The notes beneath the pieces are model-generated. The model saw only the letters and a program-made list of their open reading frames with translations. It made no database searches and had not been told where the DNA came from. Positions 14,159 through 56,618 of a stretch of 64,000 nucleotides of DNA are shown piece after piece; position 1 is the first letter of the stretch, and every line of letters begins with the position of its first letter. Both the position numbers and the translations under genes were made by a program. This stretch comes from Minisyncoccia bacterium (GTDB taxonomy: Bacteria > Patescibacteriota > Minisyncoccia > Phycocordibacterales > PALSA-1337), in NCBI GenBank assembly GCA_044228445.1, contig JBGAUV010000002.1, positions 19,219-83,218 on the forward strand. Reading direction: 5' to 3'.

Positions 14159-14887
14159 ATGAAAGAACAAGACAAAGGCCACCTACATCCAATTACACAA
14201 TTTACTCGTGAAGTTGTGGGTATTTTTGCTGATATGGGTTTCGTTGTAGCGACAGGTCCAGAACTAGAAAAAGAGCACTATAACTTCGATGCTTTAAATA
14301 TTGCAAAAGATCATCCTTCAAGAGATATGCAGGATACATTTTGGATAAAGTCTAAAGATAAAGAAAATGTAAATGATAAACTCGGTAGACCAGTAATGCG
14401 TACTCAAACATCTGCAGTCCAAGCTAGATTCCTAGAAAAAAATAAAGACAATCTTCCTTGCGCTATTATCGTTCCAGGAAAGGTTTTTCGTAATGAAGCG
14501 ACAGATGCAACACATGAGGTACAATTCTTTCAACTAGAGGCATTATATGTCGATAAAAACGTAAGTATGGGTCATTTGAAGGGTACAGTAGAGCACTTTT
14601 TAAAGAAACTTTATGGAAATGATGTTGTAATACGTTTTAGACCAAGTTTTTTTCCTTTCGTTGAACCTGGAGTAGAGGTTGATATGTTATTTAATGGTAA
14701 ATGGTTAGAAATGGGTGGTGCAGGTATGGTTCACCCGAATGTTTTGCGTGAGGCAGGAATTGATTCTGAAATTTGGAAAGGTTTTGCTTTTGGTTTCGGT
14801 GTAGATAGACTAGTTATGAGACAAAATAATATTCCAGATGTAAGAATGATATATGATGGTGATTTAAGATTTATAAATCAATTTTAA
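14159..14887 (+). CDS. pheS: phenylalanine--tRNA ligase alpha subunit (catalytic core, short form)
   Basis: Class II aaRS motifs are present: RTQTSAVQAR, FRNEATDATHEVQFFQLE, GAGMVHPNVL, GFAFGFGVDRL. Confidence 0.9.
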   Translation: MKEQDKGHLHPITQFTREVVGIFADMGFVVATGPELEKEHYNFDALNIAKDHPSRDMQDTFWIKSKDKENVNDKLGRPVMRTQTSAVQARFLEKNKDNLPCAIIVPGKVFRNEATDATHEVQFFQLEALYVDKNVSMGHLKGTVEHFLKKLYGNDVVIRFRPSFFPFVEPGVEVDMLFNGKWLEMGGAGMVHPNVLREAGIDSEIWKGFAFGFGVDRLVMRQNNIPDVRMIYDGDLRFINQF

Positions 14888-14896
14888 ATTAATTTA

Positions 14897-15064
14897 TGGA
14901 AAATAATAAACATAAACATATAAAAGAGATATCAATTTTAATAATAGCTTTAATTATTATTGGTCTAATTTATCTTTTTGGTTTAAAAATTGTTAATGCA
15001 CCAAATAATAGTAATAGTATAAACTTACCAAGTAAAAGTAATTCATATAATTCTACGATATAAA
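14897..15064 (+). CDS. 56-aa single-transmembrane mini-protein (hypothetical)
   Basis: The ORF ATG..TAA fills the pheS-pheT gap and encodes MENNKHKHIKEISILIIALIIIGLIYLFGLKIVNAPNNS.... It is below the ORF-track cutoff. Confidence 0.25.
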
Positions 15065-17032
15065 ATGAAAGTCCTAAAATCTTGGTTACAAAATCATATA
15101 GTAGAAAATTTACCAAGTGATGAAAAAATCGCTGAGGCTTTTACATTTAAATCAAGTGAAGTTGAAGGAATAGAAAAAGTTAAAGTAAATGGTGTTGATG
15201 ATACAGTTTTTGATCTAAAGGTTTTACCAGATCGTGCACACTATATGCTTTCACATAGAGGTATTGCTTATGATCTATGTGCAATACTTGGTCTAACTTT
15301 AAAAAACCAAGAAATAGTCTTACCTGAAAAAGGTGAGGATATTATATTTAATATAGAAAGTGATATTTGTAAAAGAAATACTGCTACATTGATTACAAAT
15401 ATTGAAAATAGTGATTCACCTATATGGTTAAAAGAAAGATTGGAAGCAATTGGTGCAAGATCAATTAACTTTATAGTTGATGCAACAAACTATGCCACAT
15501 TTGATACCGGTCAACCTTTACACGCTTTTGATAAAGAAAAAGTAAAAGGTAGTTTATACATTAGATTTGCAAAAGAGGGTGAGAGTATTGAGACACTAGA
15601 TGGTAAAAATATAAAATTAAAAACACATCATTTGGTAATTGCCGATGAAATAGGTCCTCTTGATATTGCAGGAATAAAAGGAGGAAAAAGAGCTGAAGTT
15701 ACAAAAGATACAAAAAATATAATTCTCGAGGCGGCAAATTTTGATTCTGTAAGTATTAGAAAAACTTCAATAGAAGTTGGTATTAGAAATGATGCTTCAA
15801 AGAGATTTGAAAATGAAATTACTCCACATATGGTTGAAAAAGGTATTTCTTCATTTTTAACTTTATTGAAACAAGTTAAACCAAGTTCAAAAATCGGTAA
15901 AATAAATGATAAATACAAGACTTTACCAAAACCTTGGTCTATTGAAGTTAATCATTCAGATATTGAAAATATATTAAATATTAAAATAGATAAAGATGAA
16001 GTATTGGGTGTTTTAAATAAATTAAATTGCACTGCAGAAGTAAAAAATAGTGTTTATAATGTTCAACCACCATTTGAAAGATTGGATCTTATAATTAAAC
16101 AAGATATTATTGATGAAATTGGTAGAATATTTGGTTTGGATAAAGTACAAAGTATAGTACCAAATCCTAAAACAAAGAATGAATTTTCTCAGGAATTTCT
16201 ATTAAATGAAAAAATAAAAGATATTTTATATCAAAAAGGTTTTTCTGAAGTAATGACTAGAACATTTACTAATAAGGGTGATATTGAGGTGAGTTATCCA
16301 GTAGCTTCTGATAAAGGATATTTAAGAACAAATCTATATGATGGAATTAATAATTCTATAAATCTTGCAATACAAAATTCTCCGCTTTTAGGTTTAAATG
16401 AAATAAAGGTGTATGAAATAGGAAAGGTGTTTACAAAGATTGGTGAAAAGAATTTATTAGTAGTTGGAATTAAAAATATAAAAAAGAAACAGGAAAAAGA
16501 AAAAGAAAAGATCAAAATCTTGAGAGATGAATTGTTAAAAGAAATAAATATAAATGCAAATATACTTTGTAGCATAGATGATACTGGGGGAATAATATCA
16601 ATTGATGGAAGGACTGTTGGATATACAAATAAAATCGAAGGATTTTTGGAAATAGATCTAGATTTATTGCTTGGAAATATAAAGAATAAATTAAGTTTAA
16701 ATTCAATAACGATTAAAGAGGGAACAAGGACACAGTTTAAGCAGTTTTCAGTTTATCCTTTTATTACTAGGGATATAGCTGTGTTTGTTCACAGTGATAA
16801 TACTTCGGATTCAGTTTTAAAAGATATAAAAAAGAATATTGGGGATTCAGCAGGGATTATATTAGTTAAAGGTCCAGATCTATTTGATGAATTTGAAAAG
16901 GACGGTAAGAGATCTCTTGCTTTCAGAATGATATTTCAATCAAATGAAAGAACATTATCTGATGAAGAAGTAAATTCTTATATGGAAAAACTATATACTT
17001 ACGTAAAAGCAAAAGGTTGGCAGGTTAGATAG
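15065..17032 (+). CDS. pheT: phenylalanine--tRNA ligase beta subunit
   Basis: B3/B4 and B5 region similarity is present (VFDLKVLPDRAHYMLSHRGIAYDL, FDTGQPLHAFD) with a C-terminal FDX-ACB-like domain. A K/E-rich insertion occurs at about aa 470-490. Confidence 0.9.
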   Translation: MKVLKSWLQNHIVENLPSDEKIAEAFTFKSSEVEGIEKVKVNGVDDTVFDLKVLPDRAHYMLSHRGIAYDLCAILGLTLKNQEIVLPEKGEDIIFNIESDICKRNTATLITNIENSDSPIWLKERLEAIGARSINFIVDATNYATFDTGQPLHAFDKEKVKGSLYIRFAKEGESIETLDGKNIKLKTHHLVIADEIGPLDIAGIKGGKRAEVTKDTKNIILEAANFDSVSIRKTSIEVGIRNDASKRFENEITPHMVEKGISSFLTLLKQVKPSSKIGKINDKYKTLPKPWSIEVNHSDIENILNIKIDKDEVLGVLNKLNCTAEVKNSVYNVQPPFERLDLIIKQDIIDEIGRIFGLDKVQSIVPNPKTKNEFSQEFLLNEKIKDILYQKGFSEVMTRTFTNKGDIEVSYPVASDKGYLRTNLYDGINNSINLAIQNSPLLGLNEIKVYEIGKVFTKIGEKNLLVVGIKNIKKKQEKEKEKIKILRDELLKEININANILCSIDDTGGIISIDGRTVGYTNKIEGFLEIDLDLLLGNIKNKLSLNSITIKEGTRTQFKQFSVYPFITRDIAVFVHSDNTSDSVLKDIKKNIGDSAGIILVKGPDLFDEFEKDGKRSLAFRMIFQSNERTLSDEEVNSYMEKLYTYVKAKGWQVR

Positions 17033-17159
17033 TCTGTGTTCTAGTATTAATATTAGAAGCTGTAAATTGTCATTTTTCTGATCTAATAGAGACAAAAAAA
17101 TGGAATCCTATTATTGATTTAAATTACCAGTATCAATAACTGTACATCCTATAATAAAT

Positions 17160-17280
17160 AAAAAAAGCGACACCACACGGCGTCGCTCCCCCTTGCTGCG
17201 CCTAGTAGGTAGATATTTAAGGGGTGGTATGTCGTCTGCACTGTCCGCTTTGCAGATTAGGATGTGCAGACAACAACTTA
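17160..17280 (-). ncRNA. candidate orphan small RNA (~120 nt) with its own promoter and intrinsic terminator
   Basis: On the minus strand there are three consecutive hairpins: GUCUGCAC..GUGCAGAC, then CCCCUU..AAGGGG, then AGCGACGCC-GUGUG-GUGUCGCU followed by U7. This GC-rich patch lies between pheT and gyrB and contains no ORF. Confidence 0.4.
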
Positions 17281-17285
17281 TCAAT

Positions 17286-17313
17286 ATCATATAACAATTT
17301 AACTATATGTCAA
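17286..17313 (-). promoter_or_regulatory. near-consensus sigma-70 promoter on the minus strand (TTGACA, 16 nt, TATGAT)
   Basis: The plus-strand tgtcaa at 17308-17313 and atcata at 17286-17291 give TTGACA-16-TATGAT on the minus strand. The predicted start is about 7 nt downstream, leading into the hairpin RNA. Confidence 0.4.
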
Positions 17314-17372
17314 TGGAGAAAATTACTTAAAAATTTGCTATAATAACTGGACTAAAAACATATAAAAACTGA

Positions 17373-19484
<2,112 letters not shown>

Positions 19485-19551: not shown

Positions 19552-21060
19552 ATGAAAAATAAACCAGTAATGCTAATTGTGCTCGATGGTTGGGGATATA
19601 GAGAAGATAAAGAAAATAATGCAGTTCTAGCTTCAAAAAAACCTTTTTTTGATAGTATTTGGAATAAATACCCACATTCATTACTTAAGGCTTCTGGAAA
19701 TGCAGTTGGACTTCCAGAAGGACAAATGGGTAATAGTGAAGTAGGGCATATGACAATTGGTGCTGGTTGTCCTATAGATACAGACCTTGTGAGAATTGAT
19801 AAAGCTATTGAAACAGGAGAATTTGATAAAAATCCTATACTTTTATCTCTATTTGATCATGTAAAGAGAAATAATTCTGTACTACATGTTCAAGGTCTAG
19901 TAAGTCCAGGAGGAGTTCATAGTCACATGAATCACCTTTTTGCTTTTTTAAGACTAGCAAAAAAACAAAATGTAAATAAAGTCGCAATACATGTATTTAC
20001 AGATGGAAGAGATACACCACCACAAAGTGCTAGTGAATATATAAATGAACTTGAAAATGTTTTAAAAGAATTTGGTCCAAGTTATTTTATCGCTACAATA
20101 TCAGGAAGATATTATGCAATGGATAGAGACAATAACTGGGATAGACTAGCAAAAGTAGAACAAGCAATGTTTGAATGTAAAGGAAATGTTTGTGAAATAT
20201 CTCCATCACTTTATTTAAAAGATCAATATAAAACTGGTAAAAAAGATGAACTTCTTGAACCTATAGTTTGTACAAATCTGGATGGTAATGGTTGTGCAAT
20301 ACAAGAGAATGATGCTGTATTTTTCTTTAACTTCCGTGCAGATAGAGCACGCATGCTTTCTGAAAAAATGATGGATAAAAAGGATTTAAAAAATCTATTA
20401 TTTATTACTCTTACTGAATACTGTAAAGATTTTACTTGCCAAATAGTATTTCCACCTATGGCTGTAAAGACAACTTTAGGAGAACAAATAAGTAAATCAG
20501 GTCTAAAGCAAGCTCACATAGCTGAAACAGAAAAGTTTGCACATGCTACATATTTTCTAAATGGAGGAAGAGAAACACCATATGATGGAGAAAGAGATAT
20601 TCTTCTTAATAGTAGAAAAGATATAAAGACTCATGATGAAGCTCCGGAAATGAGAGCGGAGGGTATAGCCGATAAAGCTATAGAAGAGATAAATGCAGGA
20701 ACTGATTTTATATTTATAAACTTTGCCAACCCTGACATGGTAGGACATACAGCAAATGTTCCAGCAATAATTAAAGCTATAGAGACTGTTGATACTCAAT
20801 TAAAAAGAGTTATATCAGCACTAGAAGAAAATGGAGGTGTTGCTGTCATAATAGCTGATCATGGAAATGCAGAAGTAAATATTGACCCAGTTACAGGAGA
20901 AAAACATACAGCACATACTACAAACCCAGTTCCTTGTATACTTACAAGTGCAGATTATAAGGTAAAAAATGGTGGTTTGGCAGATGTTGCACCTACAGTT
21001 CTAGACTTGCTTGGTTTACCAAAGAGTAAGGATATGTCAGGAAATAGTCTTTTAGCTTAG
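19552..21060 (+). CDS. gpmI: 2,3-bisphosphoglycerate-independent phosphoglycerate mutase
   Basis: The iPGM N-terminal phosphatase motifs are present (LIVLDGWGYRE...GNSEVGHMTIGAG), together with the transferase domain. Confidence 0.9.
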   Translation: MKNKPVMLIVLDGWGYREDKENNAVLASKKPFFDSIWNKYPHSLLKASGNAVGLPEGQMGNSEVGHMTIGAGCPIDTDLVRIDKAIETGEFDKNPILLSLFDHVKRNNSVLHVQGLVSPGGVHSHMNHLFAFLRLAKKQNVNKVAIHVFTDGRDTPPQSASEYINELENVLKEFGPSYFIATISGRYYAMDRDNNWDRLAKVEQAMFECKGNVCEISPSLYLKDQYKTGKKDELLEPIVCTNLDGNGCAIQENDAVFFFNFRADRARMLSEKMMDKKDLKNLLFITLTEYCKDFTCQIVFPPMAVKTTLGEQISKSGLKQAHIAETEKFAHATYFLNGGRETPYDGERDILLNSRKDIKTHDEAPEMRAEGIADKAIEEINAGTDFIFINFANPDMVGHTANVPAIIKAIETVDTQLKRVISALEENGGVAVIIADHGNAEVNIDPVTGEKHTAHTTNPVPCILTSADYKVKNGGLADVAPTVLDLLGLPKSKDMSGNSLLA

Positions 21061-21355
21061 TTTTGTATAAAATCATTTTCTAGTATTTTAGGTATAAAAT
21101 TTCTTGATTTTTACCTGGGTTTATTACTTAATTTTACTCATAATTACACCATACCGCAGGAGTACGATTTTATAAGGTTTTTTATATATATGTCTTTGAC
21201 CCAATGTCAAATAAATGAGAAAAAGGGGACTGGCCTTGAATTCATTTTATAATTTATAGCGACGGCTATAACCAACCGTCATTTATAATAAAATGGCAAA
21301 GAAACCAGCTCCAGCTCCAGTTTCACCAACTACTCCTCCACAGGCATAGTTGAAA

Positions 21356-21388
21356 GAAAAACCACCATACGGTGGTTTTTCTTTTGTT
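21356..21388. terminator. bidirectional intrinsic terminator (ACCACC-loop-GGUGGU flanked by A-run and T-run)
   Basis: The sequence aaaaaccaccatacggtggtttttcttttg lies downstream of the eno stop on the minus strand and of the gpmI/small-ORF region on the plus strand. Confidence 0.6.
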
Positions 21389-21418
21389 CGAATTACTCTT
21401 TATGTTTAGTATTTTTTT

Positions 21419-23603
<2,185 letters not shown>

Positions 23604-23684
23604 TTTTATAACTATAAGATTATGAGCCAATTAACCGTTAGAGGTATTGACGTTTACTAATTATTACTATATAATACAGGCATT

Positions 23685-25109
23685 ATGATAAATAAAACTA
23701 ATAAAGTATATAAAGCACTTATCGTCTTTGGAATCGTTTTCCTTGGCTCATTTTTCATATCTATAAATACATCAAAAGCTTTTGATATTACAAATCCTTT
23801 AGATCCATTTTGTCTATTTAGCTGTGACAATAAAGATCAGCCAACAGTTAAAAATATAACTACAAACAATATAAATAGTAATAACAGCACAGTAAATATT
23901 GGTGGTGTGCCGACTGCTTATGCTCAGTCATATACTTATTCAGCTTTAAGTGTTCAGTGTTACCCAGTTCAAACTACTGGTAGTGTTTCAGGTGTTATAA
24001 CTTGGAGAGCTTCTGTAACTGGAGGAAATGGAAATTATTCATATTCTTGGTCAGGTACTGATGGTCTGTCTGGAAGTGGTAATTCAGTGGATATAGTTTA
24101 TTCAAGTTCAGGCACAAAGTCTGCTTCAGTTTCTGTTAGTTCAAATGGTCAAACTGTAAATCGTACTTGTTCATCAATTTCAATAAGTGGCAATAATAAT
24201 TATTATTACGATAATAATTATAATAATGGTTACTATAACTACAATAACAACTATTACTATAACAATACTCCGCTTGTAGTTTCATGTAGAGCTGATAGAA
24301 CAACAGTAAATCCTGGAAGTTCAGTTACATGGTATGCAAGTGTTTCAGGTGGTAATGGTTCATATACATATTCTTGGTCAGGAAATGACAATCTCTATGG
24401 TTATCAAAGTTATGTAAATAAATTTTATGATACTGCAGGACAAAAATATGCAAATCTAATTGTATATTCAGGTAATCAACAAGTTGCTGTTCAATGTACA
24501 AATTCTGTATATGTTTCTTATACAGATTATTATTACAATAACAACACTGGTTCATACAATTATTATTATCCGACAGCAGTTTATCCAAGTTATTATCCTG
24601 TAAATACAACATACCCTACAAACAATATTCAAATAGCTTGTATAGCTTCTGATACTGAAACAAAGACTGGTGATCCAGTAACTTGGAGTGTTGAATCTAC
24701 AGGTGGCTATATATCAAGTTATGCTTGGAAAGGAAGCGAAGGTCTATCTGGTAATCAATCTAGCGTAGTTATAAGCTATCTATTACCAGGTACAAAGACA
24801 GCTTCAATAACTGCTTATACAACAAATGGTCAGACAATATCAAAATCATGTAGCAATAAAGTAGTAGTAAGTGAACAATATGTAAAATCTACACCAAGTA
24901 AAACTAACTATGTTACAGTAAAACCTAGTGCAAATAATGTAAGCATAATAAAATCAAAACCGAATACAAATAAATCTCTAGCAGAAACATTTTCAGTTTC
25001 ATCTCTATTATCTTTAAACAATGTTCCTTGGGCTTGGGTAGCGGTGCTTATGATCATTGTCTTGCTGATAATGGTAATATACCTTGTGATAAATAAGAGT
25101 AAGTTATAA
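23685..25109 (+). CDS. cell-surface repeat protein (three ~100-aa Ig-like/SprB- or PKD-like repeats, N/Y-rich spacers, C-terminal transmembrane anchor)
   Basis: It has a signal peptide. Repeats carry the motif (S/V)(V/S)TGGNG(N/S)Y(S/T)YSWSG...DG/DN. Low-complexity NNYYYNNNY spacers separate them. The C-terminus VPWAWVAVLMIIVLLIMVIYLVI is hydrophobic. Confidence 0.55.
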   Translation: MINKTNKVYKALIVFGIVFLGSFFISINTSKAFDITNPLDPFCLFSCDNKDQPTVKNITTNNINSNNSTVNIGGVPTAYAQSYTYSALSVQCYPVQTTGSVSGVITWRASVTGGNGNYSYSWSGTDGLSGSGNSVDIVYSSSGTKSASVSVSSNGQTVNRTCSSISISGNNNYYYDNNYNNGYYNYNNNYYYNNTPLVVSCRADRTTVNPGSSVTWYASVSGGNGSYTYSWSGNDNLYGYQSYVNKFYDTAGQKYANLIVYSGNQQVAVQCTNSVYVSYTDYYYNNNTGSYNYYYPTAVYPSYYPVNTTYPTNNIQIACIASDTETKTGDPVTWSVESTGGYISSYAWKGSEGLSGNQSSVVISYLLPGTKTASITAYTTNGQTISKSCSNKVVVSEQYVKSTPSKTNYVTVKPSANNVSIIKSKPNTNKSLAETFSVSSLLSLNNVPWAWVAVLMIIVLLIMVIYLVINKSKL

Positions 25110-56295: not shown

Positions 56296-56323
56296 TTGAC
56301 TTTATTTTATTTTGTGATATAAA
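56296..56323 (+). promoter_or_regulatory. sigma-70-like promoter (TTGACT, 16 nt, TATAAA)
   Basis: The promoter lies upstream of the 73-aa membrane ORF, which also has a clear Shine-Dalgarno AAAGGAG 7 nt before the ATG. Confidence 0.4.
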
Positions 56324-56354
56324 GTTAGAGAACTGTTCAACAAAGGAGTAAAAA

Positions 56355-56576
56355 ATGAATTTTTTCAATATTAGTTGGTTTGTGGTCGGTTTTGTCACAG
56401 CTGTGCTAATCTATTACAGGTCAGATAGATTCAGTGGTAAGCTGGATTTTGATAAGAGGGATATTTTTATAATATCTCTTGTAACAATGTTCGGATATCT
56501 TTCTTTACTATCTGTGGTTGGCACATCTATTTTGGACAAGTACTGGCCGACGAGTGATGGTGAAAGAGAAGAGTAA
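56355..56576 (+). CDS. small two-transmembrane protein (hypothetical)
   Basis: The 73-aa ORF has hydrophobic N- and C-terminal segments. It has its own promoter, a Shine-Dalgarno sequence and a terminator. Confidence 0.45.
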   Translation: MNFFNISWFVVGFVTAVLIYYRSDRFSGKLDFDKRDIFIISLVTMFGYLSLLSVVGTSILDKYWPTSDGEREE

Positions 56577-56580
56577 CCAA

Positions 56581-56618
56581 AGCCCCGCGTGATGCAATCA
56601 CGCGGGGCTGGTTTTTAT
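56581..56618. terminator. bidirectional intrinsic terminator
   Basis: The sequence is aaaGCCCCGCGTGATgcaaTCACGCGGGGCtggttttta. Confidence 0.65.

Follow-up and report, generated by a model that had tools for sequence, protein, structure and literature searches.

A candidate orphan small RNA gene back-to-back with gyrB in a Minisyncoccia bacterium and its close relatives

Bacterial small RNAs (sRNAs) act most commonly by occlusion of the Shine-Dalgarno (SD) sequence, and GC-rich intergenic regions in AT-rich genomes serve as a signal for the discovery of non-coding RNAs (ncRNAs). Relaxation-stimulated transcription of the gyrase genes and twin-domain coupling are likewise established, and HicAB is a type II (protein-protein) toxin-antitoxin system. 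For the Candidate Phyla Radiation (CPR)/Patescibacteria, including Parcubacteria and Paceibacteria, we found no study of regulatory RNAs or sRNAs in the literature. Here we describe an sRNA candidate on the minus strand of a 64,000-nucleotide (nt) stretch of the Minisyncoccia bacterium contig JBGAUV010000002.1 (the window), situated between two plus-strand genes identified with Pfam, pheT (15065-17032) and gyrB (17379-19484). A preliminary description had taken this unit for an independent orphan sRNA gene. The conserved unit of promoter, body and terminator, the covarying stems and the lack of both a conserved open reading frame (ORF) and an Rfam family support that proposal, and on balance we lean towards a genuine, independently transcribed small ncRNA gene, the functional product of which would be the RNA itself.

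The case rests on conservation in relatives, the statistics of the single sequence being suggestive, not compelling. The loci of relatives (designated L and a number) were gathered via GyrB relatives and via PheT. The closest GyrB relatives among GTDB genomes came from metagenome-assembled genomes (MAGs) labelled Paceibacterota, Taylorbacteria or Parcubacteria (CPR/Patescibacteria), the organism itself being a Taylorbacteria-like member of the Paceibacteria, and the GyrB of the window is also present on a Logan contig from SRR28480390. When the RNA was compared by blastn with 80 GTDB gyrB loci and with the window, no homologues or paralogues emerged; homologues were recognised only by reading the syntenic intergenic regions and by covariance models. 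Nine distinct alleles were found, always on the strand opposite to gyrB and immediately upstream of it. They form two types plus a more distant allele (Table 1) and span at least three species-level lineages, namely that of the window, that of L095/L110/L111/L113, and L005. TTGACA, the spacer length, the -10 hexamer, a length of 115-135 nt and a GC-rich terminator with its U-tract are retained in all nine, each of which shows three hairpins in its own minimum-energy fold, and the GC content of the body stays at 38-49% throughout. The preliminary description had named loss of the hairpins in relatives as an outcome that would speak against it; we found the three-hairpin layout kept, with compensatory changes.

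Several short motifs are shared by the alleles. The apex of hairpin 1 (H1) carries U-GNAA-AG, which appears in type 2 as UGAAAG in three of the four alleles (L110, L111 and L113) and as AGAAAG in L095. The H1 interior bears an ACAG(A/U)-like element on its 3' side, the linker between H1 and hairpin 2 (H2) is AUA-rich, and ...AGGGG(G)AG stands at the junction with the terminator, while the H2 apex is C/U-rich in type 1 alleles (CUACCUACU, CCUCUCAC). The homology of types 1 and 2 is supported by covariance models. R2, which was built from type 2 alleles only, finds the window unit at 32 bits (E 1.6e-5) and also L088, L089, L103 and L005, exactly at the syntenic site, part of each of these scores stemming from the terminator. 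Nothing else was found by R2 below E = 0.39 in ~1.07 Mb; in a smaller set (nine sources, ~0.12 Mb) it gave a weak match at window positions 21348-21444 (21.6 bits, E 0.0012), essentially via the terminator hairpin only. Searches of ~1 Mb of Paceibacteria loci with R1, R2 and R3, the last being the broadest model (nine alleles), detected no further member, and the window yielded no second copy.

Compensatory changes can be followed by eye in the H1 stem, which reads GUCUGC/GCAGAC in the window, GUCUAA/UUAGAC in L088, GUUCACA/UGUGAAC in L089, GUAGCC/GGCUAU in L095 and GUGGCC/GGCCAU in L110, and in the outer stem of H2, where CCCCUU/AAGGGG of the window corresponds to UCCCAU/AUGGGG in L103 (U-A to A-U). 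A structure-blind analysis with MAFFT and RNAalifold recovered seven pairs changed on both sides in type 1 (four in H1 and three in the terminator) and four in type 2. When the nine alleles were aligned to R2, 96.3% of the cells were standard pairs and 26 of 37 pairs were changed on both sides, a count that is inflated because the alignment was fitted to the model structure and the alleles are few and related, which is a point against our reading. None of 500 shuffles reached the observed values, and sliding the 3' partner by 1-3 columns left 43-57% of cells paired, with 5-11 such pairs. Changes on both sides affected 7 of 8 pairs in helix 1, 10 of 16 in helix 3 (H2) and 20 of 27 in helices 1-3 together; in the terminator stem, which is 100% paired over the nine alleles, 6 of 10 pairs showed compensatory changes. 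In our view the evidence that the RNA structure is under selection is good, though short of conclusive.

In the window itself, the minus-strand TTGACA-16-TATGAT pointed out in the preliminary description is indeed present (17313-17286) and matches the consensus at 11 of 12 positions. The promoter match alone is not above chance in this AT-rich DNA: sites with at least 11/12 matches number three in the window, and shuffles expect 4.2 ± 2. The other two lie just upstream of ORF starts, one at 22768 (minus strand) before the ORF starting at 22705, identified as enolase from its counterparts among the L001/L101 gene calls, and one at 23647 (plus strand) before the ORF at 23685; such sites therefore fit real promoters in this organism. 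From the counts of terminators and promoters in the window, the chance expectation for a promoter 40-300 nt upstream of a same-strand terminator was estimated at ~10%.

The ~120 nt downstream of the -10 hexamer had been said to fold into three hairpins, which RNAfold confirmed. The folded segment, 126 nt beginning 6 nt after the -10 hexamer, has a minimum free energy (MFE) of -48 kcal/mol (z = -4.7), none of 200 dinucleotide shuffles being as stable, and the body of the window allele without the terminator still gives z = -3.9. The predicted start lies 7-8 nt after the -10 hexamer, and all three covariance models match 17156-17284. As for the terminator, the hairpin and the run of seven U were borne out and the loop of 5 nt was not, since it is 4 nt long (GUGU): the stem AGCGACGCC / GGUGUCGCU (hairpin 17188-17165) is followed by exactly seven U (17166-17160). 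It is the sole terminator-like site within 16000-18500 and one of 14 strong intrinsic terminators detected with a custom script in the 64 kb, and the unit is the only promoter-plus-terminator unit of the window without an ORF. No minus-strand gene lies upstream or downstream of the sRNA candidate in the window, in agreement with the earlier remark that there is no upstream gene for the terminator to serve. The conspicuous GC-richness noted earlier was also found: positions 17170-17279 have a GC content of 0.53, whereas the window averages 0.32 ± 0.06; this is the 99.95th percentile of 110-nt windows, and no other non-coding stretch of the window is as GC-rich. The other GC peak inspected (452-641) lies inside a long ORF and encodes a Gly/Ser-rich stretch. 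A pipeline for ncRNA discovery has been published under the name GC-IGR (PMC6429828).

Table 1. Features of the sRNA candidate, its alleles and its immediate surroundings (window coordinates).
Feature	Position	Strand	Remarks
-35 hexamer TTGACA	17308..17313	-	The same in every allele of types 1 and 2 and in L005
-10 hexamer TATGAT	17286..17291	-	16-nt spacer; TTATATGAT and spacer length kept in 8 alleles; TATAGT in L005
Predicted transcript, ~115-120 nt	17160..17279	-	Putative start A17279/A17278 and end in the U-tract, from promoter/terminator geometry
Hairpin 1 (H1)	17230..17275	-	12-bp outer stem, internal loop, small apical hairpin; MFE and centroid structures
H1 apical motif UGCAAAG (U-GNAA-AG)	17248..17254	-	Invariant in four type 1 alleles
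Hairpin 2 (H2)	17189..17224	-	CCCCUU/AAGGGG outer stem, C/U-rich apical region CUACCUACU
Intrinsic terminator	17160..17188	-	9-10-bp GC-rich stem, GUGU loop, U7
gyrB promoter, extended -10 TGCTATAAT	17336..17344	+	Points away from the sRNA promoter; outside the RNA, given as context
hicB-like antitoxin gene relic	17046..17126	+	81 nt between pheT and the sRNA terminator; context
Type 1 alleles			Window; L102-106 and L109 (nearest to window); L088/092/093/094; L089/090/107/108
Type 2 alleles			L095/096/097 (same contig as L082); L110; L111/112; L113
L005 allele			More distant; GTDB MAG, GyrB 82% identical

The claim that the region contains no ORF needs a qualification, as a mechanical ORF of 59 amino acids (aa; 17290-17111, minus strand) does overlap it; the claim stands in that this frame has no coding support and is not conserved. 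Its ATG falls within the -10 hexamer, ahead of any transcript start, the frame runs through the terminator, and it has neither a Pfam match nor a counterpart in relatives. By eye, the possible short frames of the alleles are wholly different, so that no ORF is conserved among them, and we found no conserved frame led by AUG or SD; an identity as a protein gene is unsupported.

Comparison with known RNA families gave no assignment either. Over the whole window, Rfam 15 returned only tRNA-Thr at the gathering threshold; over 17000-17450, the 4227 families gave only noise at E≤10, namely frnS (15 bits, gathering score 60) and RatA (18.8 bits, gathering score 49, E = 9.3, on the other strand and outside the RNA), and six homologous loci gave nothing relevant at E≤1. 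ARAGORN detected no tRNA or tmRNA at the unit. The Rfam cmscan search that had been proposed as a check therefore yielded no signal recognition particle (SRP) RNA, 6S RNA or other family for the unit, and the remark that it does not fold like SRP RNA holds, there being three separate hairpins and no RF00169 match.

A number of identities were considered and rejected. For SRP/4.5S RNA (RF00169), the long hairpin, the domain IV loops, the GNAR-capped hairpin and the Rfam match are all lacking. For 6S RNA (RF00013) there is no match, the length is ~115-120 nt against a rod of ~180 nt, a central bubble is absent and the ends are unpaired; for 5S rRNA, the 5' and 3' ends are likewise unpaired and there is no Rfam match. 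A riboswitch or 5' leader was dismissed since no relative has a same-strand gene downstream, what follows in the window and in the relatives being convergent pheT or hicA, and no Rfam riboswitch matched. The RNA of a type I/III toxin-antitoxin system (e.g., RatA, RF01776) was discarded because the unit does not overlap a hic coding sequence (CDS) and the window lacks a cassette. An origin from a mobile element was set aside because the promoter pattern is absent from IMG/VR viral contigs, and an integron attC-like site because no R'/R'' boxes were visible by eye and no integrase occurs among the pheS-to-dnaE neighbours checked. Finally, no switch in GC skew was seen at the unit, and nothing therefore suggests a replication origin (oriC) here.

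That the unit is nonetheless a very divergent housekeeping RNA (4.5S/SRP, 6S or 5S rRNA) or a tiny protein gene is an idea to which we give next to no credence. The size of ~115-120 nt, the strong promoter and the GC-richness would suit it, and the H2 sequence GCAGCAAGG faintly recalls the SRP domain IV sequence AGCAGCCAAGG, an AGCA-like element that is not conserved (L089 has GCGACAAAGG). Against this stand the Rfam searches with nothing above noise, an evolution far too fast for a housekeeping RNA, the absence from close relatives and the lack of a conserved AUG- or SD-led frame. We exclude a housekeeping RNA because of the fold, the missing family motifs, the fast evolution and the absence in near relatives.

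The unit adjoins the promoter of gyrB, where a -10 box of the (T)TTGCTATAAT type precedes the gene in most of the upstream regions inspected. In the window the sRNA -35 hexamer and the gyrB -10 hexamer are 25 nt apart, and the two promoters are therefore back-to-back. A TTGAC(A/T) box is found 23-26 nt upstream of the extended -10 of gyrB in the inspected Paceibacteria upstream regions even where there is no divergent gene or RNA; boxes equivalent to window 17308-17313 occur in L098-100, L006, L008, L017 and L114, and that of L098 forms a palindrome, TTGACTCGGGTCAA. The box may have two roles, as a divergent -35 and as an operator or UP-like element of gyrB.

The principal alternative to a functional RNA concerns this arrangement, and holds that divergent transcription itself matters, either through negative supercoiling that arises locally behind the polymerase (twin-domain coupling at a relaxation-sensitive gyrase promoter) or through polymerase competition at the gyrB promoter. 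The divergent transcription would also block or pair with read-through from pheST(-hicBA) into gyrB, and the role of the hairpins and terminator would be confined to halting antisense transcription into pheT/hicA. In keeping with it, the 23-26 nt promoter spacing recurs in the inspected gyrB upstream regions of other Paceibacteria, with a TTGACT box persisting where pheT abuts gyrB (L098-100), and the promoter and the terminator are the best conserved parts of the unit while the body turns over. Moreover, the slot holds unrelated small protein genes elsewhere (L006, L063, L080 and L114), which suggests that the promoter is the constant feature. Read-through is also conceivable in that there is no plus-strand terminator between pheT/hicA and gyrB; because no U-tract follows the hairpin on the plus strand, the sRNA terminator works on the minus strand only. 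However, a neutral spacer in a genome of 32% GC should drift to AT, and the body keeps 38-49%; compensated stems are found outside the terminator (20 of the 27 pairs in helices 1-3), and the short unpaired motifs are kept. Altogether we consider that the effect of transcription alone is an unlikely explanation, though one to be taken seriously.

Several observations weigh against a functional RNA. The unit is confined to a small clade and is missing from the close relatives L098-100, in which pheT abuts gyrB (GyrB 84%), and L114, in which an 81-aa ORF occupies the slot (GyrB 85%); it is also missing from ~75 other Paceibacteria species, at whose gyrB loci the slot is empty or holds a small protein gene. 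The unit is therefore dispensable. The bodies diverge at about the neutral rate, to the point that types 1 and 2 are barely alignable, which would also fit a spacer whose sequence is irrelevant. Folding of the body alone is weak in some alleles, with z-scores of -1.2 in L103, -0.6 in L088, -1.45 in L095 and -0.5 in L005 (the spread among several alleles being -0.5 to -2.2). When each allele was compared with its own locus, in the window and in relatives, no target complementarity rose above chance, and pairing with the 5' region of gyrB was no better than that of shuffled RNAs. Lastly, in the start regions of the 45 window ORFs of at least 120 aa, most genes had no recognisable SD sequence, and classical SD occlusion is therefore unlikely. 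In many genes the ATG follows a TATAAT-like box at a distance of just 5-20 nt, a sign that their mRNAs may be leaderless or have very short leaders; AAGGAG is present in a few (e.g., the small ORF at ~56354).

A scan for a promoter plus a terminator at 76 GTDB gyrB loci detected an sRNA-like unit in L005 and L052 only, and small ORFs in L063 and L080. The unit of L052, from a Zambryskibacteria MAG, occupies ~3640-3780 on the minus strand, in the corresponding divergent slot before gyrB (at 3907), and consists of a promoter, ~100 nt and a terminator. The covariance models show no similarity between it and the window RNA, Rfam gives no match, and it may be an analogous sRNA.

The presence of small protein genes in the slot of some relatives gives rise to another explanation, by which a divergent promoter that once drove such a gene (as in L114, L006 and L063) has been left behind with a terminator-closed stub of no function. 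The slot is highly variable, a hot spot of indels and recombination (gain and loss of hicBA, mosaic 3' end of pheT), the unit is absent in many relatives and the folding z-scores of some alleles are weak, all of which a leftover would account for. It would not readily account for a length class and a three-hairpin layout that persist across lineages with only 82% identity in GyrB and 75% in PheT, nor for the maintenance of GC enrichment and compensatory pairs, and no allele bears a trace of a former ORF. We judge a relic to be quite improbable.

Pairwise profiles showed the region to be a recombination mosaic. L088 and L089 have identical GyrB and differ by ~1% overall; in the RNA body 19 of 100 positions are different, and in the last 300 nt of pheT ~33%. 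When the window was compared with L088, L089, L103 and L095, the 3' end of pheT (16730-17032; ~300 nt, the FDX-ACB anticodon-binding domain) was found in three allele types, which differ by 20-50% between strains that elsewhere are ~1% apart. The 5' end of gyrB in the window (17379-17980) resembles L103, and the rest of the gene resembles L088. No excess divergence in the RNA was seen between L110 and L111. Hypervariability or targeted diversification of the RNA was rejected, as the 3' end of pheT and the 5' end of gyrB are equally patchy; this shared patchiness therefore points to imported alleles.

Between pheT and the terminator, close relatives carry one or two hicB-hicA cassettes of varied number and decay (e.g., L088 1828-2281; L110 1246-2247), and this gap is therefore a hot spot of insertion and deletion. 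Over 83 nt, the hicB-like relic of the window shares 90% identity with an internal part of the L082 ORF 5603-5836; its identity with the L110 ORF 1809-2024 is 84%. One hicBA cassette of L082 lies between direct repeats of ~37 nt (AATTATTAATATACGCAATATAACAAACCGAGATAAA). One could suppose from this neighbourhood that the RNA is a partner of the hicBA cassettes, either an antisense to hicA read-through or an RNA antitoxin, which was stranded in the window by deletion of the cassette: in most close relatives the stop codon of the convergent hicA lies 5-12 nt from the U-tract, and the relic at 17046-17126 would be what remains of the cassette. We find this very improbable. HicAB is of type II and has, to our knowledge, no RNA component; the unit is present without a cassette in the window and in L005, and stays fixed while the cassettes vary in number and type; it does not overlap a hic CDS, and the RatA match in Rfam is noise. 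Alleles of the RNA also largely do not track the cassette type: allele C is shared by L089 and L107, whose hicB calls differ slightly, and hicBA accompanies allele A' but not the near-identical allele of the window.

Returning to a functional sRNA, we infer that the unit is transcribed into a stable RNA of ~115-120 nt, that what matters is this RNA and not the act of transcribing it, and that its action is in trans. In the proposed mechanism, the near-consensus sigma-70-type promoter, back-to-back with that of gyrB, would drive a transcript of ~115-120 nt that would fold into two body hairpins and an intrinsic terminator and be released at U7. The exposed motifs (U-GNAA-AG at the H1 apex, the AUA-rich linker and the C/U-rich H2 apex) would then recognise an RNA or protein partner. 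A trans-acting regulatory RNA is suggested by the GC-rich, structure-preserving evolution together with the short conserved unpaired motifs; that it acts in trans by base-pairing specifically is doubtful. A more far-reaching idea, which we put forward as speculative and improbable, is that of a dimorphic regulatory RNA locus, whose two barely alignable types, set between near-identical flanks, are shuffled by recombination and which is locked to the gyrB promoter, its RNA or its transcription tuning gyrase expression or supercoiling, or else marking a hot spot for toxin-antitoxin insertion. If true, such a gyrB-linked dimorphic locus would be an arrangement undescribed for gyrase genes, and the RNA would be among the first functional sRNAs in Patescibacteria.

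The neighbours of the unit are housekeeping genes, among which EF-Ts, tRNA-Thr, pheS, pheT, gyrB, iPGM, enolase, ThrRS and DnaE were recognised. PheS (14159-14887) has 242 aa and comprises the catalytic core only, PheT has 655 aa, both below the typical length of bacterial PheRS subunits, and a 55-aa ORF (14896-15063) lies between the two genes. Two further regions of the window were noted. In the long intergenic region 21060-21460 downstream of iPGM, a TATAAT-like box is immediately followed by what may be a tiny ORF (MAKKPAPAPVSPTTPPQA), and a terminator hairpin stands between runs of A and T (AAAAACCACCATACGGTGGTTTTT); the weak covariance-model matches there apparently arise via the terminator only. 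At 56296-56618 (plus strand) a promoter-like site is followed by an SD-led small ORF of ~80 aa with a hydrophobic N-terminus, and then by a terminator, which ends at 56618 and, with dG -26 kcal/mol, is the strongest of the window; the unit encodes a small protein and is not an sRNA gene.

As judged from comparative sequence data, the unannotated unit next to gyrB is probably a genuine sRNA gene, lineage-specific, orphan and ordinary in kind, which belongs to no described family; orphan sRNA candidates of such kind occur in most bacterial genomes. Its interest lies in the CPR host, in the deep divergence of its two types and in its promoter being fixed back-to-back with that of gyrB. The host matters, as CPR bacteria have tiny genomes, few regulators and, in the window, mostly SD-less genes; a well-supported sRNA gene with nine natural alleles would offer an entry point for metatranscriptomic validation and for questions of CPR gene regulation, and the fixed position against the gyrB promoter provides a testable hypothesis.

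Among known systems, type I/III RNA antitoxins share with this locus a small structured RNA beside, and convergent with, toxin-antitoxin genes in relatives; unlike them, the neighbours here are type II hicBA genes and the RNA persists without the cassettes. 4.5S (RF00169) and 6S (RF00013) RNAs are small, GC-rich, transcribed from a strong promoter and ended by a terminator, at a size which the candidate equals or falls somewhat short of, but the candidate evolves rapidly and is missing in near relatives. Divergent supercoiling-coupled gene pairs and the relaxation-stimulated gyrA/gyrB promoters are comparable in the back-to-back promoters within ~30 bp; they differ in that the predicted partner transcript is structured and GC-rich, with covarying stems, and is not an arbitrary gene. 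The candidate has no sequence or covariance-model similarity to described sRNA families, and its setting is unlike that of RsaE/RoxS, being a CPR host in which most genes lack an SD sequence, so that an anti-SD mode is doubtful. In its general design, on the other hand, it is like the generic trans-acting sRNAs, e.g., RsaE/RoxS of low-GC Firmicutes: it is intergenic, with its own sigma-70-type promoter and a length within ~100-130 nt, it combines two body hairpins with a terminator and U-tract and has a C/U-rich apical loop, and it turns over rapidly in sequence with its structure kept, within a narrow phylogenetic range.

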